This document shows, piece by piece, positions 1-14,241 of a stretch of 64,000 nucleotides of DNA; within the stretch, counting starts at the first letter, position 1; each line of letters begins with the position of its first letter. Source of the DNA: Candidatus Latescibacterota bacterium. GTDB taxonomy: Bacteria; Latescibacterota; UBA2968. The stretch spans positions 4,448,001-4,512,000 of the forward strand of contig OZ242010.1 of assembly GCA_965204745.1 (NCBI GenBank), in the 5' to 3' direction. The notes under the pieces were generated by a model that was not told the origin of the DNA, searched no databases, and worked only from the letters and a program-made list of their open reading frames with translations. Both the position numbers and the translations under genes were made by a program.

Positions 1-2
1 TC

Positions 3-1265
3 ACGCTATCGGGCGCGAACACGCTGACCGTCGCGGCGGGCGCGACGACGAGCACGGGCACCGTGACGATCACGACGGTGGACAACAGCATGTCTTCGGG
101 GAACAAGACGGTGACCGTGTCGGCGAGCACGGTGGGCAACAGCATAGGCACGGGATCGGTCACTGCTACGACGCTGACGATTATCGATGACGAAGTGGCA
201 CAGGTGACGTTGGTTTTGTCTCCGGCGTCGATTTCTGAGGCAGGCGCGGTTTCAACAGTAACGGCAACGCTAGATCGCACCGTGACCGCGGCGACGACGA
301 TCACGGTTTCAGCGATGGCTGTGTCGCCTGCGGTTGCGGGCGATTTCACGCTATCGCCCACGAACACGCTGACCGTCGCGGCGAGTGTGACGACGAGCAC
401 GGGCACCGTGACGATCACAGCGGTGAATAATACGACCGATGCACCGGACAAGCGCGTGACCGTGGCTGCAACGGTGGCGGGTGGCAATGGGGCGTCGCTA
501 TCGTCTGCCGTGACCCTGACGATCACAGACGATGACGAAGCGCCGACCGTGACGTTGGTGCTCACCCCCTCGTCCATCTCGGAAAACGGCGAGGTTTCCA
601 CGGTGAGCGCGACCCTATCGCATCCATCGAGCGCGGTCACGACGATCACGGTCTCTGCTACGCCTGTGTCCCCTGCGACTGCGAGCGACTTCACGCTATC
701 GAGTGCAGACACCCTGATCATCGCGGTGACGACCACAACGAGCACGGGCACCGTGACGATCACCGCAGAGGACAACAACGACCAGGCAGACGAGAAGACG
801 GTCACGGTGTCTGCAACCGCAAACAACGCCCAAGGCATCACCGCACCCTCACCCGTGACCCTGACCTTGACCGATGACGACGCACCGAGTGCCAACTTGG
901 ATGTGGATGGCGATGGCCGGGTGAGATTGTTCTCGGATATAATCCTGGTCATTCGATATGTCCTCTTCTTCCGGAACGAGGCCCTCCTCAGAGGGAACGT
1001 CATCGAGCCAACTGCCACGCGCACGACCGCTCAAGAAATTGAACCCTACCTCGACACGTTGGTCAATCAGAACATTCTCGATGTGGATGGCGATGGCGAT
1101 GTGAGGCTGTTCTCGGATATAATCCTGATCATTCGATATGTCCTCTTCTTCCGGAACGAGGCCCTCCTCAGAGGGAACGTCATCGAGCAACAGGCTACGC
1201 GCACGACCGCTCAAGCCATTGAACCCTACATCCGAAGCCTCTATCCCGACTCCCACTTCCAATGA
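3..1265 (+). CDS. 3' part of a large repetitive surface protein (Calx-beta/Ig-like Thr-rich repeats) ending in a tandem dockerin-like module; 5' end lies outside the window
   Basis: Frame is open from base 3. Repeats of type TLTIxDDD...VTLVLSPxSISE; C-terminal 2x LDVDGDGxVRLFSDIILxIRY module. Confidence 0.8.
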   Translation, partial: TLSGANTLTVAAGATTSTGTVTITTVDNSMSSGNKTVTVSASTVGNSIGTGSVTATTLTIIDDEVAQVTLVLSPASISEAGAVSTVTATLDRTVTAATTITVSAMAVSPAVAGDFTLSPTNTLTVAASVTTSTGTVTITAVNNTTDAPDKRVTVAATVAGGNGASLSSAVTLTITDDDEAPTVTLVLTPSSISENGEVSTVSATLSHPSSAVTTITVSATPVSPATASDFTLSSADTLIIAVTTTTSTGTVTITAEDNNDQADEKTVTVSATANNAQGITAPSPVTLTLTDDDAPSANLDVDGDGRVRLFSDIILVIRYVLFFRNEALLRGNVIEPTATRTTAQEIEPYLDTLVNQNILDVDGDGDVRLFSDIILIIRYVLFFRNEALLRGNVIEQQATRTTAQAIEPYIRSLYPDSHFQ

Positions 1266-1462
1266 AAGCCTGTTCCCTGACCGCCACAGATGAAGATGGC
1301 GATAGCAATGCGAATTTCACCGATTTCTTGACCTTTGCCAGCAAGTTCGGCTCGCGACTCGGTCAGGAGCGATATGACGCCCGGTGCGATCTCAATGGCG
1401 ATGGCGAGATTGGATTCGACGATTGCTTCATCTCCGCCGCCGGCTTTGGCTCATCAGGCTGA
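1262..1462 (+). pseudogene. Stand-alone EF-hand/dockerin-like tail, probably a relic
   Basis: DGDxNxNFxDFLTFASKFG...DLNGDGEIGFDD motif pair; ATGA overlap with the upstream stop; no signal peptide; degenerate compared with the 48758 copy. Confidence 0.55.
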
Positions 1463-1485
1463 ACGACGAAAGATGCAAACAAACA

Positions 1486-1516
1486 AAAGCCCGGGTTCAC
1501 AGTGAACTCGGGCTTT
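1486..1516 (+). terminator. Intrinsic terminator-like palindrome (family also at 5881, 7233, 48969)
   Basis: AAAGCCCGGGTTC-ACAGT-GAACTCGGGCTTT hairpin between convergent genes. Confidence 0.7.
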
Positions 1517-1652
1517 ACTTCTTGGGACAGGCACGGGGGCCTGTCCCTACGGATGATGGCGACAGGGAACGATGAAGCGGCGGCAGAGCGGTGGGGCGGT
1601 CTCGCCTCTTACTTCTCGCCTCTTACTTCTCGCCTCTTACTTGGGGCTGATC

Positions 1653-3236
1653 TCAATACCCCACGGCCATGCCGTCTTTGCGCGGGTCCGAGGCGGCGCA
1701 GTAGGTCGTGTCGTCGAGTTTGTAAATGAGTTGGCCGCCGCCATAGCCGATTTGGGGTGGGATGTGAATGGCGTGACCGCGGGCGTGGAGATCGTCCAAA
1801 GTGTCGGAGGCGACGCCGGGTTCGATGCCCACATTTGTCCCGCCCAGAACCTGCCAGCGGGGTGCGTCGCAAGCTACTTGGGGATTTTGACCGTAAGCGA
1901 AAATCCGAATCATCATCTGCGCGTGGCCTTGGGGTTGCATGTGCCCGCCCATGACGCCGAAGGACATCACGGGTTGGCTTGCGCGGGTCGCAAAGGCCGG
2001 GATGATGGTGTGATAGGGCCGCTTGCCGCCATCTACGAGATTGGGATGATCGGGGTCGAGGACAAAGCCCGCGCCGCGATTTTGCATGCTGATCCCGGTG
2101 TCGGGAATGACGATGCCAGAGCCGAATCCCATGAAATTGGACTGAATAAAGGAGACCATCATGCCCTGTTCGTCTGCGGTGGTGAGGTACACGGTGTCGC
2201 TGTGGGGCGTGCCAAATGTGGGGGATTGGGCGCGTTGCAAGTCGATCAACCGGGCGCGTTGGGCCAAATAGGCGGGGTCGAGCAGGTGCGCGTATTCGAT
2301 GTCCCGCGTATTGGGGTCAGAGACGTAGCGGTGGGCGTCGGCGTACGCCAATTTCATGGCTTCGATTTGAAGGTGCAAGCTGTCTGCCGAGTCGACGGGG
2401 TACTGGGGCAAATCCCAGTTGTCGAGGATGCCCAATGCGATCAGCGCGGCGATGCCCTGACCGTTGGGGGGAATTTCGTGCAAGGTGTGGTGCTGAAAAT
2501 CGATGGCCATGGTATCGACCCAATCGGCGCGGTGTTCGGCGAGGTCTTCTTCGGTCATTGCGCCGCCGGTGTTTTTCGCATGGGCCGCGATTTTTTCCGC
2601 GAGGTCGCCCCGGTAAAAAGCGTCCCCCTCGGTTTCTGCAATGCGCTCTAAGGTGCGCGCTTGGGCCTCGCAGGTGAAGGTGTCGCCGATGTCGGGGGCG
2701 CGACCCTGCGGCGCGAATGTCGCCATCCAATCGGGCATGTCGCGGTACGTGCGCGCAGCACTCGCCCAACCGCGCCCGGTGATGGGCGAGACCGCAAAGC
2801 CATTGCGGCCGTAGTAAATCGCGGGTTCAAACAGGGTTTCAAAGGGCAAGTTGCCAAAACGCCGTGACACTTCGACCCACGCAGAAACACAGCCGGGCAC
2901 GGTGACAGCGTCCCAACCGCGCTGCGGCATGCGGTCATACGCGGCAAATCGTTCGGGGCACCACGCCTTTGGGGAACGCCCGGATGCGTTGAGCCCGTGC
3001 AGTTGTTCTCCGTCCCACAAGATGCAAAAGGCATCGCTGCCAATGCCGTTGCTGGTGGGTTCGACGACGCAAAGCGCGATGGCCGTGGCCAGGGCCGCGT
3101 CTGCGGCATTGCCGCCTTTGTACAACATGCTAAGCCCGGCTTGCGCGGCGAGCGGTTGCGATGTGGCGACCACGTTGCGCGCCATCACGGGCATGCGTTG
3201 GGAGGGATATGGAAAAGACCATGACAGATTGGACAT
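1653..3236 (-). CDS. ggt: Gamma-glutamyltransferase family protein
   Basis: GGNAADAA, EPTSNGIGSDAF, catalytic Thr in SDTVY, GKRPYHTIIP, GVMGGHMQPQGH, terminal SDPRKDG. Confidence 0.95.
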   Translation of the reverse strand: MSNLSWSFPYPSQRMPVMARNVVATSQPLAAQAGLSMLYKGGNAADAALATAIALCVVEPTSNGIGSDAFCILWDGEQLHGLNASGRSPKAWCPERFAAYDRMPQRGWDAVTVPGCVSAWVEVSRRFGNLPFETLFEPAIYYGRNGFAVSPITGRGWASAARTYRDMPDWMATFAPQGRAPDIGDTFTCEAQARTLERIAETEGDAFYRGDLAEKIAAHAKNTGGAMTEEDLAEHRADWVDTMAIDFQHHTLHEIPPNGQGIAALIALGILDNWDLPQYPVDSADSLHLQIEAMKLAYADAHRYVSDPNTRDIEYAHLLDPAYLAQRARLIDLQRAQSPTFGTPHSDTVYLTTADEQGMMVSFIQSNFMGFGSGIVIPDTGISMQNRGAGFVLDPDHPNLVDGGKRPYHTIIPAFATRASQPVMSFGVMGGHMQPQGHAQMMIRIFAYGQNPQVACDAPRWQVLGGTNVGIEPGVASDTLDDLHARGHAIHIPPQIGYGGGQLIYKLDDTTYCAASDPRKDGMAVGY

Positions 3237-3330
3237 GGGATTGCATCTCCTTAAAAATTCTTAAAAGCCCCTCTCCGAGACGGGGAGATGTTCTGCCACC
3301 ATTTCTCGTCGAGAGACGTTGGGGTAAGTA

Positions 3331-3801
3331 TCAGTTCAGGGTGATTTCTTCGAGTTGTTCCGCGACTTGGGTCATCAACTCGTCGTTGTCGATGGGTGCG
3401 CGCAGGGGTTCGGTGAAGTTGAGGCGATACCCATTGGGGTCTATCACGATGACCTCGCGTGCGTTCCACGGGCGGTTGTGCGGGCCGGAGAGCTGGCTGT
3501 TGCCATCGCATCTGACCCGGTCGGCAATCGCGTCAACCGATTCGCGCAGCACGGTAAAATTGAGGGTGACGCCCGCGCCTTTGATCGTCGGCATCACGGC
3601 GTTCGGCCCTTCTTCCATCAAGATCACATCCGCGTGCGGTGCCCAGCGCAAGTGCGACATGATGGGGTCGCCATTGGCGCCGGGCATTTGCGAAATCAAG
3701 GCAAAGCCGAGGGTATCGCAATACCAACGTGTGGCGATGTTGAGGTCATTGACCATCAGCGTTGTATAGGACGGCATCTGGTAGTCGAGATCGCGTGCCA
3801 C
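3331..3801 (-). CDS. VOC (glyoxalase/bleomycin resistance) family protein
   Basis: LMVNDL...WYCDTLGF and PWNAREVIVIDPNGYRLNF motifs. Confidence 0.9.
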   Translation of the reverse strand: MARDLDYQMPSYTTLMVNDLNIATRWYCDTLGFALISQMPGANGDPIMSHLRWAPHADVILMEEGPNAVMPTIKGAGVTLNFTVLRESVDAIADRVRCDGNSQLSGPHNRPWNAREVIVIDPNGYRLNFTEPLRAPIDNDELMTQVAEQLEEITLN

Positions 3802-3880
3802 CTGCGTGTCCTTTCTCCCGTGTGGGATTGAATGTCGTGATGGTGGGCGGGCTGATCGCCGATTGCTAACTGCTGATCTA

Positions 3881-3916
3881 AAAAAACAAAACCCGCCGAA
3901 ATTGCTTCAGCGGGTT
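3881..3916 (-). terminator. Terminator in the leader of the VOC gene (possible attenuator)
   Basis: Minus strand AACCCGCTGAAGCAATTTCGGCGGGTT followed by a T run. Confidence 0.65.
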
Positions 3917-4218
3917 GGTGTGGAAAGACGGTTTTTGCATTCATGTCTTTGTCATAAGAACCCGCCAGCATGTCTTCATGGCGATGCCATGATCCGTGCA
4001 GACCGCGAGATTCAGCCCACTGCTCGGGCACGCATCGACACGGATAAACGACATCTGTGCATGAGAACTGCCATCACAGCGATAGGCCAGTTGTGGGCAA
4101 TGATTCTGGTGGGTTGGTGAAATCATGTCACAGTTCCATTTGTGTCGACGAACGGACGCACAAAATATAGCGGACATTTGCCAAAGTCAAGCGGGTTTTT
4201 TGGAAAAATTTCATCATT

Positions 4219-4312
4219 ATGAGATATTGGTTGACTTTGCGCTCAAATTTGCGAGATTAGATAGAGACTTCTGCTTGAGACCATGACTTGGACAGAAATC
4301 TGTTATTCCCGT
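4219..4312 (+). promoter_or_regulatory. Repeated TA leader element, copy 1 (TTGACT -35-like box, CAAATTTG palindrome)
   Basis: Nearly identical to 5171-5263; first ~40 bp recur at 6314. Confidence 0.7.
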
Positions 4313-4395
4313 GGTTGGTATTACGCTACCCAATGCGCGCACGCGCTTCTGTGCGGATGGGGGGATGAGCAGGATTAATCCGAATGGAGGCATTG

Positions 4396-4605
4396 ATGGA
4401 CTACAAAGTACCACTTGTTCTGACACCGCAACCCGAAGGAGGGTACACTGTGACCTCTCCCTTGTTGCCCGAGTTGGTCACTGAAGGCGATTCGATCTCC
4501 CAAGCGGTAGAGAACGTCCAAGACGCACTGGCTACGGTCATTGAACTGTATGAAGACATCGGCCGCCCATTGCCTCAAAATACCCAGATAGGGATGAGCA
4601 CTTGA
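4396..4605 (+). CDS. HicB-family antitoxin-like protein (no hicA adjacent)
   Basis: PQPEGGYTVTSPLLPELVTEGDSISQAVENVQDA; GGAGG RBS. Confidence 0.8.
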   Translation: MDYKVPLVLTPQPEGGYTVTSPLLPELVTEGDSISQAVENVQDALATVIELYEDIGRPLPQNTQIGMST

Positions 4606-4880
4606 TACTAAATTTTAGGCATCGCGGGTTGCGCCGACTCTATGAAACAGACGACTCGCGCGGTGTAAATCCAGACCATGCAGAAAAACTGAAGAATATT
4701 CTGGCGCGGCTTGAAGTGGCTGAAAGTCCAATGGATATGAATTTACCCGGTTTTCGTTTACACCCGCTCAGAGGAAATCGGGCCGGTTTATGGGCTGTTG
4801 TGGTGCGTGCAAACTGGCGCGTCACCTTCCGCTTTGAAAAGACAGATGTCGCCGATGTCAATTATGAAGATTATCATTAA
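4602..4880 (+). CDS. higB: HigB/RelE-family toxin (plasmid maintenance killer type)
   Basis: MILNFRHRGLRRLYE...PGFRLHPLRG...VRANWRVTFRF...YEDYH. Confidence 0.92.
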   Translation: MILNFRHRGLRRLYETDDSRGVNPDHAEKLKNILARLEVAESPMDMNLPGFRLHPLRGNRAGLWAVVVRANWRVTFRFEKTDVADVNYEDYH

Positions 4881-4892
4881 AAGGAGCATCCT

Positions 4893-5174
4893 ATGCCGAT
4901 GAAGAATCCTCCGCACCCCGGTAAACTCGTCCTTGAAGAGTGTCTTGAGCCGCTTGGCCTGTCCATTACAGAAGCTGCCGTGGGCTTGGGCATCACCCGC
5001 ACGAGTTTGTCCCGGCTGATTCACGGGCACACGGATATTTCTGCGGAAATGGCCGTGCGTCTGTCCAAGGCATTCGGCGGCAGTGCGGAAAGTTGGTTGC
5101 GCCAACAAATGAACTACGACTTGGCACAGATTCAGAATACCTGTGCCGGTGAAACAGGTAGCGACTCAGGATGA
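4893..5174 (+). CDS. higA: HigA antitoxin (XRE HTH); last residues derive from the next repeat
   Basis: MKNPPHPG...[29 protein letters not shown]. Confidence 0.92.
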
Positions 5175-5263
5175 GATATTGGTTGACTTTGCGTCCAAAT
5201 TTGCGAGATTAGATAGAAACTTCTGCTTGAGACCATGACTTGGACAGAAATCTGTTATTCCCG
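5137..5263 (+). promoter_or_regulatory. Repeated TA leader element, copy 2
   Basis: Matches 4219-4312 and 6280-6353. Confidence 0.7.
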
Positions 5264-5281
5264 TTGTGTACTTGGATTTTT

Positions 5282-5650
5282 ATGACCCAAAATCCTACGC
5301 TCTGCGTCGTCTTTTTTCGCACTGACACGGGAAATGAACCTGTGCGAGAATGGCTCAAAGGGCTTGCAAAAGAAGACAAAAAGACAATTGGTGAAGATAT
5401 AAAATTGGTGCAGTTTGGTTGGCCCTTGGGCATGCCACTCGTTCGGAAACTGAGAGGCGTTCAAGACCTATGGGAAGTTCGCAGTAACCTCAGCGATAGG
5501 CGGATTGCGCGGATTTTGTTTAGCGTAGAAGGTAGCGATATGGTACTTCTGCACGGCTTTTTCAAGAAGAGCCGAAGGACGCCGAAATCCGCTTTGAAGT
5601 TGGCACAAGATCGAAAAAATCTATGGCAAAGGGGAGACGACCATGAATAA
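5282..5650 (+). CDS. RelE/ParE superfamily toxin (Gp49/DUF891-like)
   Basis: FFRTDTGNEPVREWLK...GWPLGMPLVRKL...LWEVRS...MVLLHGFFKKSRRTP. Confidence 0.9.
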   Translation: MTQNPTLCVVFFRTDTGNEPVREWLKGLAKEDKKTIGEDIKLVQFGWPLGMPLVRKLRGVQDLWEVRSNLSDRRIARILFSVEGSDMVLLHGFFKKSRRTPKSALKLAQDRKNLWQRGDDHE

Positions 5651-5861
5651 GTATCGCGGTAGCAATTTTGATGACTTTCTCAAAGAGGAAGGCATGCTTG
5701 AAGACGTATCTGAACGCGCACAAAAGCGACTGGAGGCATTACGAGTTGAAGATGCGCCCGCTGGCTCCAGCAACGGGTTTTTGCAATGGCTCAAGCAATT
5801 TGTCAATCGCCGCTTCCCTATTTCTTCTGACGCCCGGCGAGAAACCGCCTCGCCTCGATAA
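5643..5861 (+). pseudogene. XRE-type antitoxin N-terminus, truncated before the HTH
   Basis: MNKYRGSNFDDFLKEEG is typical of partners of Gp49-like toxins; sequence then diverges and ends in the shared right flank. Confidence 0.65.
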
Positions 5862-5946
5862 CGATTCCTTCCAAAAATTGAAGCCCGAGTTCCTTGCGAA
5901 CCCGGGCTTTTTCTGTTCTTCAAAAGAACCGCCGCGTCATTCTCTT

Positions 5947-6162
5947 TCAGGTGAAAAATGTAATTTTGACCAGCAGGCCCAGTGCGATTACCACCCCCGC
6001 TCGAATCCACGCAACCGTGCGTCCCAAAGCATTGAGTTCTCGGCGCACCTCTCGCAATTCAGCCTCAACCGCGGATAGCCGCGTGCGAATTTCCTCAATG
6101 ATACCCTCAAGTTTCGAAATCCGTTCCCGCGCTTCGTGATCGATGGATCTTTCATCGGTCAT
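5947..6162 (-). CDS. Small coiled-coil protein with a C-terminal membrane anchor (paralog of 13890)
   Basis: RISKLEGIIEEIRTRL...GVVIALGLLVKITFF; RBS AAAGGGGG. Confidence 0.75.
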   Translation of the reverse strand: MTDERSIDHEARERISKLEGIIEEIRTRLSAVEAELREVRRELNALGRTVAWIRAGVVIALGLLVKITFFT

Positions 6163-6279
6163 TCATTCACCCCCTTTATCTGACAACGCAACAACCTCCT
6201 CTGATAACATACGCCCAAAATTCAAAAACATTTTTTAATATAGACACATTGCTGGCCGATTCTGTTTAAAAAAATCCGC

Positions 6280-6353
6280 ATACCTGTGCCTGTGAAACAG
6301 ATCGCGGATCAGGATGAGATATTGGTTGACTTTGCGCTCAAATTTGCGAAATT
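6280..6353 (+). promoter_or_regulatory. Repeated TA leader element, copy 3 (partial)
   Basis: ATACCTGTGCC...CAGGATGAGATATTGGTTGACTTTGCGCTCAAATTTGCGA. Confidence 0.65.
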
Positions 6354-6401
6354 AAACACGGGAGGGATTCGAGAATTTCACTTGAGAAACAACTACCCGC
6401 A

Positions 6402-6776
6402 ATGCCGGAAACTAAGGTCATATTCTATTGTGAAGCGAACGGAACCGTTCCCGTGCTGGCGTGGCTCGACGACTTGCTTCCCAAGGTTAGGGCCAAATGT
6501 ATTGTAAAAATTGAGCGACTCAGCACATTAGGATATGAACTTCGGAGACCTGAAGCCGATTATTTGAGAGACGATATTTACGAACTTCGCATCGCATATC
6601 GCAACATTCAATATCGGCTTCTTTACTTTTTTTGTGGACGTAACGCCGCGGTGCTCTCGCACGGCATTGTCAAAACACAGCGCGTGCCGCCTGCGGAAAT
6701 CGCCCGTGCTATTCGCCGAAAAAGAAACTTTGAACGGAATCCTGAACGACATACTTATTCGCTGGAGAATGAATGA
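6402..6776 (+). CDS. RelE/ParE superfamily toxin (Gp49-like)
   Basis: LGYELRRPEADYLRDDIYELR...YRLLYFF...VLSHGIVK. Confidence 0.9.
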   Translation: MPETKVIFYCEANGTVPVLAWLDDLLPKVRAKCIVKIERLSTLGYELRRPEADYLRDDIYELRIAYRNIQYRLLYFFCGRNAAVLSHGIVKTQRVPPAEIARAIRRKRNFERNPERHTYSLENE

Positions 6777-7090
6777 TGCGCGAAAAAAGAACCATAGATG
6801 CCGTGGAAATCCTGCACAAACGCTATGTCGCGGGCGACCCGAAGTTGGAAGCCTTGCTCAAAACGGAACGGATCAACGCAGAGATCGGCACTCAACTCTA
6901 TCACCTTAGAACCGCGTCTGGCCTGTCGCAACGGGAATTGGCCGATCAGGCCAGCATGCCCGTCTCGGTCATTGACAGCCTTGAAAACGCCGACTACGAA
7001 GGACACGCCTTGGCCGTATTCCGTCAGATCGCCGCCATGCTGAACAAACGGGGCCAGATTTCTTCTGACGCCCAGGCGATCAGCGGATGA
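6773..7090 (+). CDS. XRE HTH antitoxin, C-terminus shortened
   Basis: LYHLRTASGLSQRELA...IDSLENADYEGH; ends in the shared ISSDA flank. Confidence 0.85.
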   Translation: MMREKRTIDAVEILHKRYVAGDPKLEALLKTERINAEIGTQLYHLRTASGLSQRELADQASMPVSVIDSLENADYEGHALAVFRQIAAMLNKRGQISSDAQAISG

Positions 7091-7442
7091 ATGCGGATTG
7101 GGGCGCAGGTAGGGCGGAGCGTGCAGGTGGTGTAAAGGATGTAGCAGGTGCGAAGGACGCAGTGGGGGTGGTAGGGGTAGGGTAATCCGCGCAATCCCCT
7201 AATCCGCGCAAATCCGCGATCCAGACAACAAAAAGCCCGAGTTCCTTGCGAACCCGGGCTTGTTTTTTGTGCGTTCTTTCATCTGTGTTCATCCGTGTTC
7301 ATCCGTGGTTGCTTTCCCCCTCTTGTATCTTTGGGCGAGCACGGGGGCATCGCCCCTACACACTGATCGCCTTTGAACGTTGTACCCCTTTTGTGCCTTT
7401 TGTGCTTTTTGTGGCTAATTGTGTCTGTTATGCCTCTTGTGG

Positions 7443-8591
7443 CTAAAATCCCATCTTCCATCTCCCGTACTTCCGCAAAATCTCGATCAACTCGTCATGC
7501 GGTAGCGCGGGCATCACGCGGTCGTCGCGTCCCACCATAGAATCGGCCACGCACATGGCATTGACAATCGCCTCTTCCGTGGCTTCGATAGTGGCTTGAA
7601 ACAGCGGGGTGAGCCGGTGATCGCGCAATGTGGTAATGGTATCGCGGTCCGCCCGCGTGCGCGACAGGCGGTACGCCGTTGAAAACGCGATGGCAAAATC
7701 GCCGCTGCTCGTGCGGGAAACCGTACCCGTGCGCCCAATGCCCACAGGCGCGCGCTTGCACAACCGGCGCAACTGATGCGGCACCAAGGGCGCGTCTGTG
7801 GCAATGACCACGATGATCGACCCGTCGCGCGTGGGCGTTCTCTCAACCGGCAGTTCCCGGCCGACGGGCACCCCATCGATGACGAGCATGGGCCTGCGCC
7901 CGCAGTTGGCATTGACGAGCACCCCGACCGTATGTCCATCCGGCACGACCCGAGACGCCGTGCCAATGCCGGCTTTGAAGCCGTACGCGCGCATCCCCGT
8001 ACCCGCGCCGACCGAGCCTTCGGGCACCGGCCCGGTCCTTGCCTTTTCAATGGCCGCGACGACGTGATCGATCCCAACGTGTCGCCCGGCAATATCATTC
8101 AACCCCCCGTCATAACACTCGGCCACCACGGGCAGGGGAACGCGGCCCGCGCCCTGTTTGAGCATGTACGCGACCACCCCGCTATACCCTTCGCCCACCG
8201 AGAGCGTATTCGTCAGCACGATGGGCACCTCGAGTTGCCCGCGCTCATTGACCCAAGCCATGCCCGTCATCTCGCCATTGCCATTGAGGGCCTCGGCCGC
8301 GGCAAACACCTGATTGCGATAAACATCCTCCCCGTGCGGCACGACAGCCGTGACCCCCGTGCGAACCGGGCCTTTGCCCACGACGAGCTCGCCCTGCCCT
8401 TTGATCAGCGTCACATGCCCGACGCGCACGCCCGCCACATCGGTAATCGCATTGTACTTCCCCGTGGGCAACACGCCAATTTGAATGCCCAATTCCCGAG
8501 CACGCGCCCGCTGGGCATCACAGGGCATTGCGAGCAGCGAGACGAGGAACCAGAGTGTACAGGCACTTTTGAGAAATCGTCTAAATGCCCC
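7443..8591 (-). CDS. P1/DmpA (S58) family aminopeptidase; start uncertain (ATG at 8528 or an alternative codon near 8590)
   Basis: RARELGI..G..NAITDVAGVRVGH, EGSVGAGTGM, GIGTASR, DGSIIVVIATDAPL, SSGDFAIAFST. Confidence 0.9.
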   Translation of the reverse strand, partial: GAFRRFLKSACTLWFLVSLLAMPCDAQRARARELGIQIGVLPTGKYNAITDVAGVRVGHVTLIKGQGELVVGKGPVRTGVTAVVPHGEDVYRNQVFAAAEALNGNGEMTGMAWVNERGQLEVPIVLTNTLSVGEGYSGVVAYMLKQGAGRVPLPVVAECYDGGLNDIAGRHVGIDHVVAAIEKARTGPVPEGSVGAGTGMRAYGFKAGIGTASRVVPDGHTVGVLVNANCGRRPMLVIDGVPVGRELPVERTPTRDGSIIVVIATDAPLVPHQLRRLCKRAPVGIGRTGTVSRTSSGDFAIAFSTAYRLSRTRADRDTITTLRDHRLTPLFQATIEATEEAIVNAMCVADSMVGRDDRVMPALPHDELIEILRKYGRWKMGF

Positions 8592-8815
8592 CTCTCCGAG
8601 ACGGGGATGGCCTCCTTTTTCGTAGGAAGCACCGATTCCCCCTTTGTATCGTTGGGCACTACAAACACTGCTCGCCTTTGAACGGGCTATCGCCAGTTGT
8701 ACCCCTTTTGTGCCTTTGAACGGGCTGTCGCCAGTTGTACCCCTTTTGTGCCTTTTGTGGCTATAATCCCATCTTCCTCGTAGAAAGGGGGTAGGTTTGA
8801 ATCCCATAAAACACC

Positions 8816-9949
8816 TCATTTCTTTTTTGCCCCGTGTCGCCGGCCTTTCCACGTAAATCCCCGCGCTGTCCCCGCCAGGCCAACCAGCACGATGTACGGG
8901 ATTTGCGCGATCTCCCAAATCGGAAACGCGGAAAACAAATCCCTGCGGTTGAACGTCAAAACGCCCTTTCCCACCACGAGCACGTCAGCCAAAATTTTGC
9001 CCCCCCAACAGAGCAGGGGAAGTTTGTAATCGCCATCCATCACCGCGAAAAACAAGGCGATGGGAATGAGCGCGTTCACCGTAAAGACCGCGGCGATGTA
9101 CGCGAAAAACCCCGGATTGAGGCGCAGTTGATACGCGGCATTGGACGCCCACCGCTTGCGTTGTTGCCACAGTGATGATGGGGTCTCGGGCCGATGCGTC
9201 GTCACAAAAGCACCGGGATCATCCGCAAACGCCACGCGCCCGTCCCACGCCTTGTGGAGCAACTGGAGCAACAACACATCGTCTCCAGACGCCCGGTGTG
9301 CAATCTCCCGAAACCCGCCCACTCGTTCAAACAGGCTTTTCCGATAGGCAAAATTTTGCCCCGAAGCCGCGAGGGGCATCCCCACGCCCGCGGCCCCAGC
9401 CGCCGCCGCCATCAGCACAAAAAAATCCAACGCCTGCAAGCGATGGAAAAACGAGCGCGGTTCCCGCAGTTGCGAAAACCCAATCACGACGCCCGCATCT
9501 GCCGTCATATAAGACGCCACGGCCGCAACCCAAGTGGGCGGCACCGTGCAATCCGCGTCCGTGGTCAGGATCCACTCTCCTCGGGCGTGCTGAATGCCGA
9601 CGGACAGCGGTCGCTTTTTCGCCGCCATGTCCAAAAACCGGTCTCCAACGGACAACGAGCGCAGGTTGTCCATGCCCGCAGATGCGACGACATGGGATGT
9701 GCGATCAGTCGAATCGTCGTCGACGACCAAAACTTCAAATCGGTCGGCCGGATAAGTCTGTCGCTCGAGACTGCCGAGACATCTCCCGATGTAATCGGCT
9801 TCGTTGCGCGCGGCGATCACGACAGAGATAAACGGCGTCTCACGAGTGCGCGCCTGGCTCCTCAATCGGCATAATCCAACGAAAAAACACAGCGCGACGA
9901 GGCCGTAAAGCGCGGCGGAGAACGCCGACAAATACAGGATGAAATCCAT
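8816..9949 (-). CDS. GT2 glycosyltransferase with TM segments
   Basis: SVVIAARNE, VDDDSTD, TTDADC, SGDD, QRKRW. Confidence 0.92.
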   Translation of the reverse strand: MDFILYLSAFSAALYGLVALCFFVGLCRLRSQARTRETPFISVVIAARNEADYIGRCLGSLERQTYPADRFEVLVVDDDSTDRTSHVVASAGMDNLRSLSVGDRFLDMAAKKRPLSVGIQHARGEWILTTDADCTVPPTWVAAVASYMTADAGVVIGFSQLREPRSFFHRLQALDFFVLMAAAAGAAGVGMPLAASGQNFAYRKSLFERVGGFREIAHRASGDDVLLLQLLHKAWDGRVAFADDPGAFVTTHRPETPSSLWQQRKRWASNAAYQLRLNPGFFAYIAAVFTVNALIPIALFFAVMDGDYKLPLLCWGGKILADVLVVGKGVLTFNRRDLFSAFPIWEIAQIPYIVLVGLAGTARGFTWKGRRHGAKKK

Positions 9950-9951
9950 TG

Positions 9952-11013
9952 CTATCCGGGGCTCACCTTTTCGATATCGTAAAACATGCCCTTCACGCCT
10001 TCCGAGCAATTGTTGCAGATCGGCACAGCCGTGCGGTCTTTGAGAATGGCATTGCGAAAATCCGCGTATTTTTTGCCCGTCCAAATCCGGTCGAAATCCC
10101 CTTCTGCCAACGCATCTCCCAAGCCGTAATGCACATCTTTGTCAAAACAGCACGGCGAAACCGCGCCATCCCAGTTGATCACCGTGCTGTACCACAAATG
10201 CCGGCAGGTATTGCTGATCTCGCTTTTGGTCGCGAGGTGATCCGCATCGTAATCGTAGCGGCTGAACTTCTCATCCGAAGGCAAAAAGGTCTCGGCATCG
10301 GCTTCGGTATAAACCTGGGCCGTTTTGAGCGACAGGCGATCCACCCCCAAGTTCCGGGCGAGTTGGCGCGCGGCTTCAATTTCGCCCTCGTTGTGTTTCA
10401 TAATGATAAATTGCAGGTGGATCAACGGGTGGCGTTTTCGCAACTCGCGCTTGGCCTGAACCAGCAGCCGGATGCCCTCGAGCACGCGGTCAAAATTGCC
10501 CCCCACGCGGTACTTGACGTAGCTTTCCGGCGTGACCCCGTCCAGCGAAACCACGAGCTCCGACAAGCCGGAATCGACGATATCCCGCGCGGTCTCCCGA
10601 TTCTTGACATAGTGGACATTGGTGCTCGTCAGCGTGGGCACGTTGTGCGCGGTCGCCAAGCGGATCATATCCGTGAGACGCTTGTTGATAAACGGCTCGC
10701 CTTGGTTCCACAACATGAGGAGCAACAAGTGATCGGCCTGTTGTTCGAACACATGCTTGAAATGGTCGTAAGGCATCGTGCCGCGCGCCCGGGTCATCTC
10801 CCCATTGCCCGAGGGGCACAGCGGGCATTTGAGGTTGCAAAAATTGGTGGGTTCGACCATGAGCACAAAGGGCTTGCCCATGCGAATATCCCGCCGAAAC
10901 ACATTGGACAGCCCATAAGACGCCACCACCTTCGCGGCATTCCACACGCGCCTCGGCGTGATTGCGCGATGGTATCTCATCAGGGTTTCGGGCAACAATT
11001 TAATCGAGAGCAT
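9952..11013 (-). CDS. Radical SAM/SPASM domain protein
   Basis: CNLKCPLC motif, QGEPF, C-terminal CRHLW...PCCFD...CNNC. Confidence 0.93.
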   Translation of the reverse strand: MLSIKLLPETLMRYHRAITPRRVWNAAKVVASYGLSNVFRRDIRMGKPFVLMVEPTNFCNLKCPLCPSGNGEMTRARGTMPYDHFKHVFEQQADHLLLLMLWNQGEPFINKRLTDMIRLATAHNVPTLTSTNVHYVKNRETARDIVDSGLSELVVSLDGVTPESYVKYRVGGNFDRVLEGIRLLVQAKRELRKRHPLIHLQFIIMKHNEGEIEAARQLARNLGVDRLSLKTAQVYTEADAETFLPSDEKFSRYDYDADHLATKSEISNTCRHLWYSTVINWDGAVSPCCFDKDVHYGLGDALAEGDFDRIWTGKKYADFRNAILKDRTAVPICNNCSEGVKGMFYDIEKVSPG

Positions 11014-11014
11014 A

Positions 11015-12103
11015 TTATTTCCATTTGAACGATGAACATGTGCCGAGCGCGCACACCACGACGATATACGGCGCGATCAGGATTTCGAGCACGGGAAACC
11101 ACCAGAGCAACTTCAGACTCTTGAAGCGCGTCGCACCGGCGAGCAAAAACACCGCATCCGCGATCACCTTTGCGATGAGACAAACGCCAGTCGCAAAAAA
11201 CAACTCGGCGTCGACCCAGTACAAGACCGGAAGCGTCGACAAGATGGCGTGAAATATATACACCGCAACCGCCGGAATCAAGACTGGAACGCCGTAGTGG
11301 ATGGTCTTGGATTGGTAGCGCACCTGCCGATAGATGAGATTGTCCGCATGAGACGCAGATGGCACAAAAGCATCTGCATTGAACCGAATTTTCCACGCGC
11401 TTTTCTGTGCGACCTGCCGCATGAGCAACACGTCATCCCCTCCGACGATGTGCCCGATCTCCGCAAAGCCATCGACCTCGTCAAAGGCTTTTCTGCGATA
11501 GGCCATGTTGCGCCCCGAACACGTCAGCGGAACCCCGATGCCCGCGCTGCCGGCCGCGAGCGTGGAAACGATGAGGGCTTGCAAAGACAGGAGGCCGGAC
11601 AGTGCCCTCTCGTTTCGCAACAAAGGGGCATGCCCGATGACCATCCCCACCTCCGGCGCGAAGTGCGCGAGCGTGGAAGCGATCCACCGCGGGTCGGGCC
11701 GGCAATCCGCGTCCGTCGTGAACACAATCTCCCCCCGCGATTGTGCGATGCCGTGCCACAGGGCGTTTTTTTTTGGGCACTCGCAATACCGCTCCGCCAC
11801 GGACACACACCGGATATGTGCCGAGCGGCGCGCCCATTCCGCAACGCGATCCGCCGTGCCATCAGCAGATCGGTCGTCGACGACGATAATCTCCACGCGC
11901 TTTGAGGGATACGTCTGCGCGACCAATGCCCGCAAACACGCATCGATATTGCCGGCCTCATTCCGCGCTGGCACGATGACAGAGACCGATAGACCTCGAT
12001 CAGGCCCCATCCGCGGTCTGTATCTGCGAAACAGGCCAAAGAAAAAAAGCGCAATCGACGAGATATACAAAGCGCAAAGGCTCGTGACGAAATAGATCGA
12101 CAT
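11015..12103 (-). CDS. GT2 glycosyltransferase (paralog of 8816)
   Basis: SVIVPARNE, VDDRSAD, TTDADC, GGDD. Confidence 0.92.
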   Translation of the reverse strand: MSIYFVTSLCALYISSIALFFFGLFRRYRPRMGPDRGLSVSVIVPARNEAGNIDACLRALVAQTYPSKRVEIIVVDDRSADGTADRVAEWARRSAHIRCVSVAERYCECPKKNALWHGIAQSRGEIVFTTDADCRPDPRWIASTLAHFAPEVGMVIGHAPLLRNERALSGLLSLQALIVSTLAAGSAGIGVPLTCSGRNMAYRRKAFDEVDGFAEIGHIVGGDDVLLMRQVAQKSAWKIRFNADAFVPSASHADNLIYRQVRYQSKTIHYGVPVLIPAVAVYIFHAILSTLPVLYWVDAELFFATGVCLIAKVIADAVFLLAGATRFKSLKLLWWFPVLEILIAPYIVVVCALGTCSSFKWK

Positions 12104-12363
12104 GGATAGTGGTCAGTGGTCAGTAGTCAGTAGTCAGTCCGCCCATCCATCCGGCCCCATGCCCGCCTCAAACAAAGTATGGACTTTGCAGGCAAGTAAA
12201 AAGCGAAAAGTCAAGCGAATCGCCCTCTAAAAAACGCGCTACAAATCGTTTGACAATGCGAATAAAGCATTGAAGCCATCGCGCCCTTGTCCTTTCGCTA
12301 CTCGGTGGATTCAATCCCGCTCGGTCACGTCTCAAAGGTCAACCAAGAGAGACTCGTTTTATT

Positions 12364-12740
12364 GGGACCTACCCCCTGGCCCCCTTCCTAAGAGGAAGGG
12401 GGAATGGCGAGAGGTTGTGCGAGGGATTGTGTGTAAGGGTTTTTGGATTTGCATGGCGTGATCCATTCGCCCAAAGCCATCATAATAGCCCTGGATACAA
12501 CCCTTCAAGAAAGCCATGCGCTCCCCCTTTCCTTGTAGGCACAGGCGTAGCCTACAATGAGCGAAGCGAATAACGGGGCCAGGGGGATAGGTCGCTTTTT
12601 CATGGCGCGATCCATTCGCCCAAAGCCATCAAAATAGCCCTGGATACAACCCTTCAAGAAAGCCATGCGCTCCCCCTTTCCTCGTAGGAAAGGGGGCCGG
12701 GGGGATAGGTCGCTTTTTCATGGCGCGATCCATTCGCTCC
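12364..12740. mobile_element. MITE/REP-like element (~190-230 bp unit with terminal inverted repeats), partly tandem-duplicated here
   Basis: GGACCTACCCCC...CCCCTTCC at one end, GGAAAGGGGGCCGGGGGATAGGTC at the other; related copies at 36369, 43248, 52847. Confidence 0.7.
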
Positions 12741-12805
12741 AACCCAAACAAAAACGCCATCGGCAAATCGCTGATGGCGTTTCTGCTATCGCGTGACTTC
12801 GGTTG

Positions 12806-13771
12806 CTAAAAATACGGCGCGATATTCTTTTCGATGCGCTCGAGGATGGGGGTGTCGTCCCTGTCCGCGACGAATGTTTCGCCTGTTACGCGCTCGAACA
12901 AATCGATGTAGCGCTCGGAAACTCGCGTGCGGATATCGTCATCCAATTCGGGGATATTGTCGTCAGAAATTCCCTTCTCCACCAGCCAGAGGCGCAAAAA
13001 CTCTTTGTCCAAACTCTCGGGTTCCTCGCCGCGAGCGTGCAGGTCATGATACGAATCGAGAATCCAGTAGCGCGAGGAATCCGGGGTGTGAATCTCATCG
13101 GCCACGGTCAGATTGCCCGCTGCATCCAACCCCATCTCGTATTTGGTATCTACCAAAATCAACCCGCGTTGCGCGGCTAATTCCGTACCGCGGGCGAAAA
13201 GTTTCAGCGCGACCTCTTCCACCTCTGCCCACCGATCTGCATCGACCAACCCGCGGGCGACAATTTGCTCTGGCGAGATCGACTCGTCGTGATCCTCTGC
13301 CTTTGTCGTGGGCGTGATGATCGGCGCGTCAAACGGCTGGTTTTTTACCATGCCTTCGGGCAAATGCACGCCGCAAAAATGCCGCACGCCCTTGGCGTAG
13401 TTCGTCCACACCGAGGTGTCGGTGCTACCGGTGAGGTACCGCCGCACCACGATCTCGACCGGCAACATGTCGAGTTCACGCGCCACTGTCACATTGGGGT
13501 CTGGCACGTCGATCACCTGATTGGGCACGATGTCTCGCGTCTGGTCAAACCAGTACTGCGCGGTGCGGTTCAACACCTGCCCCTTGAGCGGAATCGCCCC
13601 CAAGATGTGGTCAAACGCGCTTTGCCGATCCGTGGTGATCAAAATGCGTTTGTCGTCGAGCAAATAAATATCCCGCACTTTGCCCTTTTTGTACCGAGGC
13701 TGCCAGCGGTCAAACCTGGCCTCCAACAAACAGTTGTCCAGTTGCGAACGAATTTGTGCTTGAGAAATCAT
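12806..13771 (-). CDS. purC: Phosphoribosylaminoimidazolesuccinocarboxamide (SAICAR) synthase
   Basis: KGKVRDIY, TDRQSAFD, GLILVDTKYEMG, DEIHTPDSSRYW, DKEFLR. Confidence 0.97.
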   Translation of the reverse strand: MISQAQIRSQLDNCLLEARFDRWQPRYKKGKVRDIYLLDDKRILITTDRQSAFDHILGAIPLKGQVLNRTAQYWFDQTRDIVPNQVIDVPDPNVTVARELDMLPVEIVVRRYLTGSTDTSVWTNYAKGVRHFCGVHLPEGMVKNQPFDAPIITPTTKAEDHDESISPEQIVARGLVDADRWAEVEEVALKLFARGTELAAQRGLILVDTKYEMGLDAAGNLTVADEIHTPDSSRYWILDSYHDLHARGEEPESLDKEFLRLWLVEKGISDDNIPELDDDIRTRVSERYIDLFERVTGETFVADRDDTPILERIEKNIAPYF

Positions 13772-13889
13772 GGGTCATACCCTCCAAAAAAAGGAACCAC
13801 AGACGAACACGGATAAACGCGGATGGGCCGAGACGAGCTAGGCCAAAGTTCAAAAAAAAGAAAAGCAACCACAGATGAACGACGTGAAC

Positions 13890-14135
13890 TCAATTGAAAA
13901 ATGCGATCTTGACCAGCAGGCCAATGGCGATCATAACCCCAACCCACAGCGAGGAAACCTTTACATCGAGACGATGAAGCCGGTCATTTACTGCACTCAT
14001 CTCTCGCCTCATTTCCCGCCTCATGTCGCGTTGATCAGCCTCAATCTGCGCCAATCGCGCCCGGATTTCTTCAATGATACCCTCGATCCGAGAGATGCGC
14101 CCCTCGTGGTTGAGGGTCTCTTTTGAATCTGTCAT
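13890..14135 (-). CDS. Small coiled-coil protein with a C-terminal membrane anchor
   Basis: AAAGGAGG RBS; paralog of 5947-6162. Confidence 0.75.
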   Translation of the reverse strand: MTDSKETLNHEGRISRIEGIIEEIRARLAQIEADQRDMRREMRREMSAVNDRLHRLDVKVSSLWVGVMIAIGLLVKIAFFN

Positions 14136-14241
14136 GCGTTTCCTCCTTTACGTGAAATCATTAAAAAATGCGATCTGGACCAGCAGGCCCATGATGAATA
14201 CCAACCCCGCCTTACCTCTTATGGCATCGCCTTTACGCCAC

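Follow-up and report, generated by a model that had tools for sequence, protein, structure and literature searches.

Chromosomal integrons carry toxin-antitoxin (TA) cassettes, and gene-cassette arrays are tandem units bounded by repeats.

TA toxin and antitoxin families also recombine, which the part of PMC3337138 drawn on here describes as 'mix and match'. In prokaryotes, promoters are reused before unrelated genes, and these are treated as putative mobile promoters in the relevant part of the work by Nijveen, Matus-Garcia and van Passel (PMC3575422).

The locus described here lies at 4219-7261 of a 64,000-nt stretch of DNA, called the window. Coordinates are window positions unless marked as genome positions. 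The first-pass annotation proposed a chassis that exchanges TA cargo at fixed junctions. Part of this stands: different TA genes lie between the same left and right sequences, and toxin 2 with its truncated antitoxin does appear to have been spliced in. The dedicated exchange mechanism at fixed junctions does not hold up.

Like an integron cassette array, the locus lines up small TA units in tandem, with repeated sequence bounding each. Unlike such an array, it lacks an IntI-type integrase, and no attC-like imperfect palindromes mark where its units meet. A promoter-like leader of its own precedes every unit, there is no common Pc, and the borders are not fixed. An integron array was rejected as a candidate given that PF00589 matches lie only far away, that inspection found no attC-like sites, and that a leader precedes each unit.

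The units resemble type II systems with HigB/RelE-like toxins (Gp49, HigB-like_toxin) and XRE/HigA antitoxins, being small overlapping toxin-then-antitoxin pairs from the expected Pfam families. As in the 'mix and match' of that part of PMC3337138, toxin and antitoxin parts of different origin appear to be recombined. The differences are that here this is seen at nucleotide resolution in one genome, with a foreign coding part enclosed by one module's promoter/operator end and final 14 codons, and that the product is an antitoxin without its own DNA-binding part.

The likeness to putative mobile promoters, as far as the cited part of PMC3575422 describes them, is that highly similar upstream DNA stands before non-homologous genes in one genome, with no linked known mobile element. 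Identity is 89-96% over 75-97 nt before a DUF2283 remnant with a hicB-like gene, before toxin 2, and before toxin 3. Unlike those promoters, this leader has an identifiable source, the native DNA upstream of one TA family, and a scan gave no sigma-70-type match.

The locus reveals no new kind of mobile element. Its interest is that breakpoints can still be read in what seems to be a case of both TA 'mix and match' and promoter reuse: another module's promoter and tail would enclose a foreign toxin together with half an antitoxin, and the donor type and its decayed copies lie alongside. New TA combinations, and perhaps TA sets with cross-regulation, may arise in this way, and the locus is a candidate illustration from nature.

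Genome and surroundings

The host is a sponge-associated bacterium with a repeat-rich genome of 5.48 Mb. The search for the leader core covered 29 other genomes of the family. The neighbours of the array are:

3880..4218, no strand: ancestral intergenic flank on the glyoxalase side, kept in G018 (to 4210), G016 (to 4211) and G001 (to 4218)
7443..8918, minus strand: peptidase S58 gene, right-hand neighbour (Pfam Peptidase_S58, 376 bits)

The glyoxalase terminator is inside the left flank, at 3890-3916 on the minus strand. In G018, G016 and G001 this flank leads into a minus-strand VapBC-like module. The last 114-140 nt or so of the peptidase gene are duplicated at genome 989.8 kb.

The leader copies

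4219..4315, plus strand: leader copy 1, 97 nt, carrying TTGACT and the CAAATTTG core
5171..5267, plus strand: leader copy 2, from repeat comparison and 24-mer scan
6314..6401, plus strand: leader copy 3, continuing into the cargo-3 module's own 5' untranslated region, aligned at full length with G019, G003, G010, G013 and G007
5137..5170, minus strand: truncated terminator hairpin preceding leader copy 2, matching 6280-6313; the inner stem alone remains
6268..6310, minus strand: intrinsic terminator adjoining leader copy 3 (z -3.3, then a T-run), also in G001, G018 and G016

That one leader recurs at 4219, 5171 and 6314, as first reported, is real. A 24-mer of it occurs three times in the window (4218/4219, 5170/5171 and 6313/6314) with at most 1 mismatch, and not once in 100 shuffles. 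Copies 1 and 2 do match, but over 97 nt at 95.9% identity (4219-4315 vs 5171-5267) and not over the roughly 93 bp given before. Copies 2 and 3 are 89% identical over 75 nt (5137-5211 vs 6280-6354), and the extra 35 nt or so upstream that had been noted for this pair are inside that match. The first 41 nt are 93-100% identical among copies, whereas the cargos share no DNA. The border between the left flank and copy 1 is crossed by a contig of run X11 with 0 differences.

Beyond the window there is a fourth copy, at 990,846-990,891 of the genome. The G000-type leader is restricted to two genomes, with 4 copies here and 2 in one sister genome. The leader core is more widespread: 7 of the 29 other family genomes have it, in single copy, and in all 7 it is directly upstream of a cargo-3-type pair. 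The regions aligned with copy 3 are likewise upstream of cargo-3-type modules, and the homology begins at about -25 and extends across the 5' untranslated region.

TTGACT is kept in 13 of the 13 leader copies found. At none of the leader copies did a consensus scan call a sigma-70-type promoter, and there is no acceptable -10 at 16-18 nt. Folding of the leader gave no significant structure or inverted ends (z 0.1 to -0.7).

Could the leader be a small mobile promoter element, MITE- or REP-like, that was inserted upstream of three pre-existing TA operons? Near-identical copies of 41-97 nt do stand before non-homologous genes, the genome is full of dispersed short repeats, and G016 has an orphan diverged leader without cargo at 354.7 kb. 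We nevertheless consider this decidedly unlikely. The 4 genome copies and the 2 in the sister genome are all tied to TA DNA or remnants, the leader is homologous to the native cargo-3-type upstream region across the genus, the folding result shows neither structure nor inverted ends, and a shared antitoxin tail would be left unexplained. The leader as a REP/MITE-like dispersed repeat was rejected on its copy number of 4 and its fold z.

The native module

6402..6776, plus strand: toxin 3, Gp49/HigB-like (Pfam Gp49, 60 bits), 79-81% protein identity to five relatives of the genus
6773..7090, plus strand: antitoxin 3, XRE-type HTH (HTH_31 25.7 bits, HTH_3 21.5 bits, both below their cut-offs)

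The two genes overlap by 4 nt (6773-6776), and the pair is kept in 7 other genomes. In relatives, the cargo-3-type module is a compact unit of about 0.8 kb whose copies are 92-98% identical and occupy at least 4 contexts. No mobile-element genes flank it in the 3-kb loci of the relatives examined. Antitoxin 3 is native up to about 7079, where the BLAST match to G016 ends, and then has a new 5-residue tail. Cargo 3 fits the class, having a Gp49 toxin gene and then an overlapping gene for an HTH antitoxin; cargo 2 does not fit, in that its antitoxin lacks a DNA-binding domain.

The repeated flanks of the array are the two native ends of one such compact (about 0.8 kb) Gp49-toxin/XRE-antitoxin module, of cargo-3 type.

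A grafted toxin and a chimeric antitoxin

5282..5650, plus strand: toxin 2, Gp49/HigB-like (Pfam Gp49, 61 bits), foreign to its frame
5643..5861, plus strand: chimeric antitoxin 2', 72 aa; about 58 N-terminal residues of A2 type without HTH, the last 14 of cargo-3 type
5820..5835, plus strand: 16-mer 'junction', copy 1, where retained cargo-3-type sequence starts
7058..7073, plus strand: 16-mer 'junction', copy 2, an exact match to copy 1
5947..6162, minus strand: 71-aa ORF with a coiled coil and a hydrophobic tail, also downstream of the G016 module, with four paralogous genome places

Toxin 2 is 68% identical to a homologue in G043, which belongs to another genus and whose upstream DNA is unrelated to the leader. 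The full-length A2 homologue of G043 has 92 aa and an HTH_37-like C-terminal part, which is missing from the window copy. A Pfam search of the 72-aa chimeric antitoxin gave zero matches, including no XRE or HTH, so the earlier XRE label for it falls. Homology of the window DNA to the A2 copies of G016 stops at about 5816.

Beyond this point the sequence is of another kind. The 16-mer ATTTCTTCTGACGCCC is exact at 5820 and 7058, against an expected count of 0.01. Both ORFs read ISSDA there, as reported, but neither antitoxin finishes with it: RRETASPR or QAISG follows before the stop. Two different breakpoints, at about 5816-5820 and about 7079, overlap in the 16-mer. RRETASPR, the cargo-2 tail, matches native antitoxin-3 tails, which end in QISSDARRETASSR in G016 and in QISFHPLQETASSR in G019 and G010. 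The last 14 residues of the chimera, ISSDARRETASPR, are homologous to the A3 tails of the same three genomes. What follows the 16-mer in cargo 2 is thus the native C-terminus of a cargo-3-type antitoxin.

G016 also gives the order leader, cargo 3 (toxin deleted, antitoxin with a stop), tail, and 3' end of the 71-aa ORF. It follows that the cargo-2 locus is a cargo-3-type frame whose interior was swapped. Cargo 2 is a foreign Gp49 toxin and a truncated antitoxin grafted into that frame.

The cargos had been called unrelated. They are indeed different TA genes within the same ends, but toxins 2 and 3 are both Pfam Gp49, at 26% identity. It is on this shared family that a single tandem duplication with diverged products could be based, and repeats of 40-100 nt can mislead assemblers, so that the array might be an artefact of collapsed or chimeric repeats. 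Either origin is scarcely credible. The 26% between the toxins compares with 89-96% between the leaders, the antitoxins are unrelated outside the tail, and the 68% identical orthologue of toxin 2 has different flanks in another genus; this largely refutes the duplication. As to assembly, contigs from the runs of several studies bridge every junction with 0-16 differences, so that the array cannot be put down to the assembly of a single data set.

A leader copy before cargo 1

4311..4363, plus strand: 3' remnant of a DUF2283-family gene, reading ...VGITLPNARTRFCADG; 4314-4358 match the complete gene of relatives
4384..4605, plus strand: HicB-like small ORF, 73 aa (Pfam HicB_lk_antitox, E 1.1e-5, 26 bits, just below the cut-off of 27)
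4602..4880, plus strand: higB toxin, RelE-like (Pfam HigB-like_toxin, 64 bits); its TTG start overlaps the HicB-like stop
4893..5174, plus strand: higA antitoxin, HTH_3 (46 bits), last 13 codons or so replaced

Cargo 1 had been read as one module, hicB-higB-higA. In relatives, the HicB-like gene and higBA are at separate loci, which speaks against this. In G016 and G018 the HicB-like homologues are solitary, and a hairpin of the same kind comes after them. The HicB-like ORF has no HicA-like ORF beside it; its upstream neighbour is the DUF2283 remnant. That remnant has 45 nt (4314-4358) which share 84-87% identity with the 3' end of an intact gene of 78 aa, compared at five loci (G002, G004, G008, G010, G014). 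The complete gene matches Pfam DUF2283 at 24.7 bits, with a cut-off of 23.

The higBA pair has lost sequence on both sides. Its native promoter TTGACA-17-TAAAAT, present in G009, G020 and G017, is absent before higB in the window. The higA gene ends in QIQTKTNDIRVRKFELV before the stop in four relatives, and the window departs from them at 5134/5135; that the HigA tail was overwritten had been seen correctly.

Two candidates for cargo 1 were rejected. An intact HigBA module has both of its genes here, but the native promoter and the last 13 or so higA codons are replaced; a HicAB module would need the HicA-like ORF, and the HicB_lk match stays below its cut-off.

Hairpins and dispersed repeats

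5881..5909, no strand: two-way terminator hairpin, copy 1 (z -4.2), with 9 exact genome copies and 48 family members
7233..7261, no strand: terminator hairpin, copy 2, an exact copy of 5881..5909
7083..7230, no strand: dispersed short repeats that replace the native antitoxin 3 tail, in 80 genome places
7272..7460, no strand: very abundant dispersed repeats, at least 200 and 137 genome places for the two halves

The same 29-nt hairpin does follow cargos 2 and 3, a recurrence that chance does not account for. As a right flank specific to these slots it is rejected, with variants at window 1487 and 48974 besides the 48 family members. It belongs to a generic kind of terminator repeat that is dispersed through the genome. 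Its position at gene ends was checked for a handful of copies only. The hairpin is a GC-rich stem-loop with T-runs, and the terminators tested have fold z of -3.3 and -4.2. In this, and in the 80 to more than 200 places of the 7083-7460 repeats, the locus is like REP/REPIN-like repeats combined with intrinsic terminators. The leader, with 4 copies, and the 16-mer with its tail, with 2-3 copies in the genome, are unlike these abundant repeats.

Borders and recombinases

The units do not have fixed junctions. Left limits of the leader are at 4219, 5137 and about 6239. On the 3' side, similarity ends at +36 (G016), +41 or +97, and the 16-mer is where two breakpoints overlap. In three independent contexts (window copy 1, G016 at 876 kb, and G003), the left limit is within about 2 nt of -11/-12 before TTGACT.

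The absence of an integrase nearby is confirmed. PF00589 matches in the whole genome are at genome positions 676,610-677,122 and 2,802,802-2,803,317 only; the ORFs of window 1-12,000 hold no tyrosine recombinase, and the genome holds no integron-type recombinase gene. A search of 3800-7500 for attC-like sites, judged by inspection, and for terminal inverted repeats gave terminator hairpins and short chance pairs only. The circular or joined forms that the chassis idea would predict did not appear: contigs of four public runs, which can miss rare forms, contain no joints between leader copies or between 16-mer copies.

These results bear on a dedicated cassette system, in which the leader and the 16-mer with its tail would be cis-acting recombination sites of some unknown mechanism that captures or swaps TA cargo. 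Such a system would account for unlike cargos between the same end sequences in one genome, for the same ends with other content in G016, for a compact module in several contexts without mobile-element genes, and for the recurring left limit. It is still highly improbable. Elsewhere, in 7 of 7 other genomes, the ends always enclose one and the same type of cargo, a single time per genome, which is in essence what the first-pass annotation had named as refuting its idea. Neither left nor right borders are clean, and the fourth copy has its right border inside the peptidase gene. Recombinase, terminal sites and repeat-copy joints are missing within the searches just given.

Origin of the array

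The reading we prefer, and hold to be probable, is that 4219-7261 is a lineage-specific mosaic TA island, in which the ends of one Gp49/XRE module were kept and the interiors or surroundings swapped by illegitimate recombination. The left end would be the putative promoter/operator region of the module, the leader; the right end would be the last 14 or so antitoxin codons and the terminator. Copies of this frame may have arisen through local and segmental duplication, after which recombination without site specificity presumably put pieces from other TA modules in place of interiors or surroundings. The operons apparently share their ends because pieces of other pairs were spliced into module copies by untidy recombination.

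Cargo 3 would be the native content, its tail overwritten by dispersed repeats. Cargo 2 would be the foreign Gp49 toxin with a truncated, HTH-less antitoxin in an in-frame fusion to the native tail. Cargo 1 would be a leader copy placed before the DUF2283 remnant, the HicB-like gene, and a higBA pair that has no promoter of its own and is damaged at the end of higA. All three operons would now be read from copies of one putative promoter region.

The mosaic reading is supported by the loss of the native higA tail and the higBA promoter at sharp breakpoints, and by the ragged unit limits. Several observations count against it. Near-identical leader starts with unlike cargos require recent events or homogenisation. 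An interior swap that keeps a working promoter and an in-frame tail requires two well-placed breaks; selection for expression could explain these. That the left limit recurs near -11/-12 in three contexts may point to a defined end. Finally, the lack of a sigma-70-type call at any leader copy weighs against the promoter part.

Antitoxin 3 is the sole regulator native to the leader region, and promoter reuse may therefore put the three operons under common control. A stronger version is unlikely: that the promoter/operator and tail ends are a portable frame, and that the three toxin operons, or four with the paralogue, form a small regulon under antitoxin 3 as master repressor. In its bolder form, the ends would be cis-acting sequences that move compact TA modules without a linked recombinase. 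Such a regulon, if true, would include toxin 2, whose antitoxin lost its DNA-binding part, and the promoterless higBA.

The fourth copy and the chromosome

The fourth copy duplicates 6303-7294 and part of the peptidase gene as one segment, at 97% identity, and its toxin is frameshifted. It runs 140 nt into the neighbouring peptidase gene, beyond any 'slot' border. The relatives compared, 4 of 4, have glyoxalase and peptidase at unlinked places, and the reciprocal joint is at genome 989.7 kb. A large rearrangement, read as a chromosomal inversion, runs through the cargo-3 copies. Because it runs through the TA site, this site is a rearrangement hot spot in a repeat-rich sponge symbiont.

Read depth peaks at the repeats at 7272..7460 in all four runs.

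The toxin-antitoxin island

The toxin-antitoxin (TA) island lies between a glyoxalase gene and a peptidase S58 gene (7443-8918, minus strand). It holds three cargos, each behind a copy of the same leader. The best explanation, and one we consider probable, is that these are copies of the flanks of one TA family, whose interiors and surroundings came from other modules via duplication and illegitimate recombination.

The ORFs are broadly as described in the first-pass annotation, with three corrections, to the HicB match, to the toxin family and to antitoxin 2':

4384-4605, HicB-like ORF, weak match (26 bits, against a cut-off of 27)
4602-4880, HigB
4893-5174, HigA, an HTH_3 protein
5282-5650 and 6402-6776, toxins 2 and 3, both of the Gp49 family
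5643-5861, antitoxin 2', no family match
6773-7090, antitoxin 3, weak HTH matches

The leader

The leader is indeed present at three sites in the window. A 24-mer, with no more than one mismatch, occurs at 4218/4219, 5170/5171 and 6313/6314; 100 shuffles yielded zero occurrences. Copies 1 and 2 are alike as claimed (4219-4315 versus 5171-5267, 95.9%), the shared length being 97 nt rather than the ~93 bp first reported. The extra ~35 nt upstream that copies 2 and 3 were said to have in common is also there: 5137-5211 and 6280-6354 match over 75 nt at 89%. The whole 5.48-Mb source genome has four leader copies, the fourth at 990,846-990,891 on the minus strand.

The leader core was searched for in 31 family genomes, as TTGACTTTG..CT.AAATTTG.GA with up to two mismatches. 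It is found in seven other genomes (G013, G003, G007, G019, G020, G010 and G023), one copy each. A cargo-3 homologue lies directly downstream in all seven, and these are the same sites as the cargo-3 DNA matches. In an alignment of five relatives, homology to leader 3 begins ~25 nt before TTGACT, spans the 5' untranslated region and reaches the start of the toxin. The core in relatives contains a near-perfect palindrome, GTTCTTAAATTTGAGAAC, and TTGACT is present in 13 of the 13 leader copies found. A promoter scan called no sigma-70-type promoter at the leader, and folding of the leader RNA gave structure no better than shuffles.

On inspection, differences between the copies are not biased to silent changes, so the idea of a coding leader (a small ORF read by eye, or another frame) was dropped. 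A degenerate leader 19-mer matches 30 loci in genome contigs and 53 in metagenome contigs. Two of these 83 resemble the window beyond the 19-mer, both in one uncultured Latescibacteria bacterium record, at the coordinates of the matches in sister genome G016. The pattern was too short, and the remaining 81 matched by chance.

The native module and its ends

As noticed earlier, exact copies of the junction 16-mer ATTTCTTCTGACGCCC lie at 5820 and 7058, where the expected count is 0.01. Genome-wide there is one further copy, which has one mismatch and lies inside the fourth unit. The 16-mer is the overlap of two breakpoints: cargo-3-type sequence starts in cargo 2 at ~5816-5820, and ends in cargo 3 at ~7079.

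Cargo-3-type antitoxins of relatives end in ...QISFHPLQETASSR, and in the closer sister genome G016 in ...QISSDARRETASSR. This native tail reappears in window cargo 2 (ISSDARRETASPR*), and not in window cargo 3. Given that the leader core of the seven other genomes always stands before cargo-3 homologues, and that the relatives' tail is found in cargo 2, the native left end of one TA family is the leader, and its native right end is the 16-mer with the tail. Cargo 3 (6314-7090) is native content, its tail past ~7079 swapped for dispersed repeats.

In relatives the cargo-3-type module is compact, ~0.8 kb long. Within the genus its copies are 92-98% identical and occupy no fewer than four different contexts. 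The ends are ragged there, the left limit varying from -45 to 0 and the right limit from +771 to +799. Identity of the neighbouring glyoxalase gene is 79-89% (fetched loci L126-L134, from the seven genomes with a leader core), against 92-98% for the module, which suggests that the module was recently transferred among these symbionts. The native tail after the 16-mer (GGCGAGAAACCGCCTCG...TAACG), with a G016-type terminator, also occurs at genome position 1,306,220-1,306,273 on the minus strand. By eye it sits behind the apparent start of a Phd/YefM-like antitoxin, which would be a further graft onto the tail.

Cargo 2

Toxins 2 and 3 are 26% identical, and toxin 2 is 68% identical to a homologue in G043, a genome of another genus. 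DNA upstream of that homologue is unrelated to the leader. The G043 antitoxin is 92 aa long, and its C-terminal part is HTH_37-like; window antitoxin 2' retains only ~58 residues of the N-terminal side. DNA homology of antitoxin 2' to the G016 copies ends at ~5816, the left edge of the 16-mer.

The order in G016 is leader, cargo 3, 16-mer, cargo-2-type tail, terminator, and the 3' end of a 71-aa minus-strand ORF. Cargo 3 there is decayed, with the 5' part of the toxin deleted and a stop codon in the antitoxin. Taken with the foreign toxin 2, this order shows the cargo-2 locus to be a cargo-3-type frame with a replaced interior.

The 71-aa ORF (5947-6162, minus strand; coiled-coil and hydrophobic tail) follows both window cargo 2 and the G016 module. 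It has four paralogous places in the genome (~113,974, 114,251, 2,436,746 and the window); sequences at window 13,895 and 14,164 match it weakly. Elsewhere in G016, at 3,628,000-3,639,500 (L021), three partial toxin-2/antitoxin-2 copies lie among repeated transposase-like ORFs: in the sister genome, IS activity has broken up this TA locus.

Cargo 1

Cargo 1 is a patchwork. Its leader stops at 4315, where it meets what is left of the 3' end of a DUF2283 gene (4311-4363); five fetched loci (G002, G004, G008, G010 and G014) have this gene complete. The HicB-like gene stands alone before the generic hairpin in G016 and G018; in cargo 1 higBA follows it. The TTG start of higB is fused to the HicB-like stop, and the native higBA promoter (TTGACA-17-TAAAAT in G009, G020 and G017) is missing from the window. 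The higA tail is overwritten, as the first reading had it: the last ~13 codons (...TKTNDIRVRKFELV* in relatives) are swapped from 5135 for a truncated minus-strand terminator and leader 2.

A conserved 45-nt piece at 4314-4358 was considered as a tRNA fragment. ARAGORN found no tRNA or tmRNA in 1-15,000, so this was rejected, and the piece proved to be the DUF2283 gene end.

Hairpin and dispersed repeats

As reported, an exact 29-nt hairpin stands at both 5881 and 7233. This type of hairpin has a stable fold (z -4.2 and -3.3) and T-runs. It is not part of a TA-specific frame: the genome has nine exact copies of the 29-mer and 48 matches to a strict stem pattern, which carry 20 different loops. 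Variants also occur at window 1487 and 48974. The hairpin is a generic dispersed terminator of the source genome.

The stretch from antitoxin 3 to the peptidase gene, 7083-7460, is made up of dispersed repeats whose copy numbers range from 80 to at least 200 genome places. Per segment, 7083-7230 is at 80 places, 7317-7378 at at least 200 and 7379-7460 at at least 137; such extremely abundant short repeats also occur at window 8600-8760. Contig depth peaks over the 7083-7460 repeats in all four runs aligned.

A minus-strand terminator hairpin with its downstream ...GATGTGTCTATA... stretch (window 6239-6313) recurs in G001, G018 and G016 (L015, L016 and L018), in two of which it precedes an RND-transporter-like gene. 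The unit is a candidate for a further dispersed terminator/promoter element.

The fourth unit and a large rearrangement

The fourth unit is a segmental duplicate of 6303-7294 at 97% identity, and it extends into the peptidase gene to take in its final 114-140 nt. Since it reaches into that gene, it respects no right-hand 'slot' border. Its toxin is frameshifted by a 1-nt deletion in a T-run; its antitoxin is intact. Compared with window 6303-7600, genome 989,000-991,000 holds an inverted 1.1-kb duplicate (leader 3, cargo 3 and peptidase fragment), joined to a VapB-like fragment. That fragment, of the VapB-like gene that follows the glyoxalase-side flank in relatives, and the gene beyond it, at 989.0-989.8 kb, adjoin the peptidase fragment.

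The glyoxalase and peptidase genes are unlinked in four of the four relatives examined. The glyoxalase-side flank is conserved to window 4210-4218, and is then followed by a VapBC-like module, variously decayed, in G018, G001 and G016. At this leader-1 site (L122, L123 and L124) the module, with a PIN toxin, is on the minus strand. The peptidase side in G018 has the upstream transporter and tandem repeats of the 990-kb locus in the source genome, and toxin 3 is reduced to a 38-nt remnant fused to a HicB-like gene.

The unlinked neighbours, the VapB-like and peptidase fragments at 989 kb and the G018 arrangement together indicate a large reciprocal rearrangement through inverted copies of the cargo-3 unit, between ~0.99 Mb and 4.455 Mb. 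Throughout the genus the two sites are hot spots for TA modules. Cumulative GC skew, computed with regard to the symmetry of the two breakpoints about the origin, has its extremes at 0.74 and 5.47 Mb.

Junctions and mechanism

The first-pass annotation proposed a promoter-terminator chassis, a cassette-like array that takes up or swaps TA cargo at fixed junctions. The junctions are not fixed. Left limits of the leader differ (4219, 5137 and ~6239), and the copy with the ~6239 limit carries a complete minus-strand terminator (z -3.3). To the right, similarity stops at +36 (the G016 deletion), +41 (copy 3 versus 1 and 2) and +97 (copy 1 versus 2). There is no evidence for a new cassette system; the supposed flanks belong to a single TA family, whose two ends they form.

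No integrase is nearby, as had been stated; the two PF00589 genes of the genome are at 676 kb and 2.80 Mb. Nor is the island an attC integron, as was also held, with no attC-like sites seen there. Rfam gave zero matches over 3500-7800 at E up to 1, and inspection saw no terminal inverted repeats between the module's left and right ends. A portable frame or TA regulon, or module ends that act in cis, we consider improbable.

Interiors and surroundings of the frames come from other modules, joined at sharp, non-recurrent breakpoints. Under the favoured duplication and recombination, the frame would have been copied first, with illegitimate recombination following, and selection would have retained those joins that supply both a promoter and a stop in frame. 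The leader, where TTGACT is kept in all copies without a sigma-70-type call, is the putative promoter/operator of the family, and antitoxin 3 its presumed natural repressor. If so, the three operons may now be co-regulated.

TA 'mix and match' evolution, as PMC3337138 describes it, is the same process, seen here at nucleotide resolution. Here it is combined with promoter reuse of the kind treated in PMC3575422, the promoter role of the leader being putative.

Metagenome contigs

The window stretch is present in sponge-metagenome runs of seven studies. Each junction is crossed, with few differences, by Logan contigs of four aligned runs. Also present in the contigs is the joint proper to the fourth unit, which links 7294 to 7461 through CACC. 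Joints from leader to leader or from 16-mer to 16-mer were absent from the contigs of these four runs; contigs lose rare variants, so this does not argue against rare excision.

A joint from 4590 to 5628 occurs in contigs of three runs (X11, X1 and X13), its shorter side being only 30 nt and the letters between unknown. Homology to the G018 HicB-like gene likewise ends at 4590. The joint may represent a different arrangement carried by a related strain.
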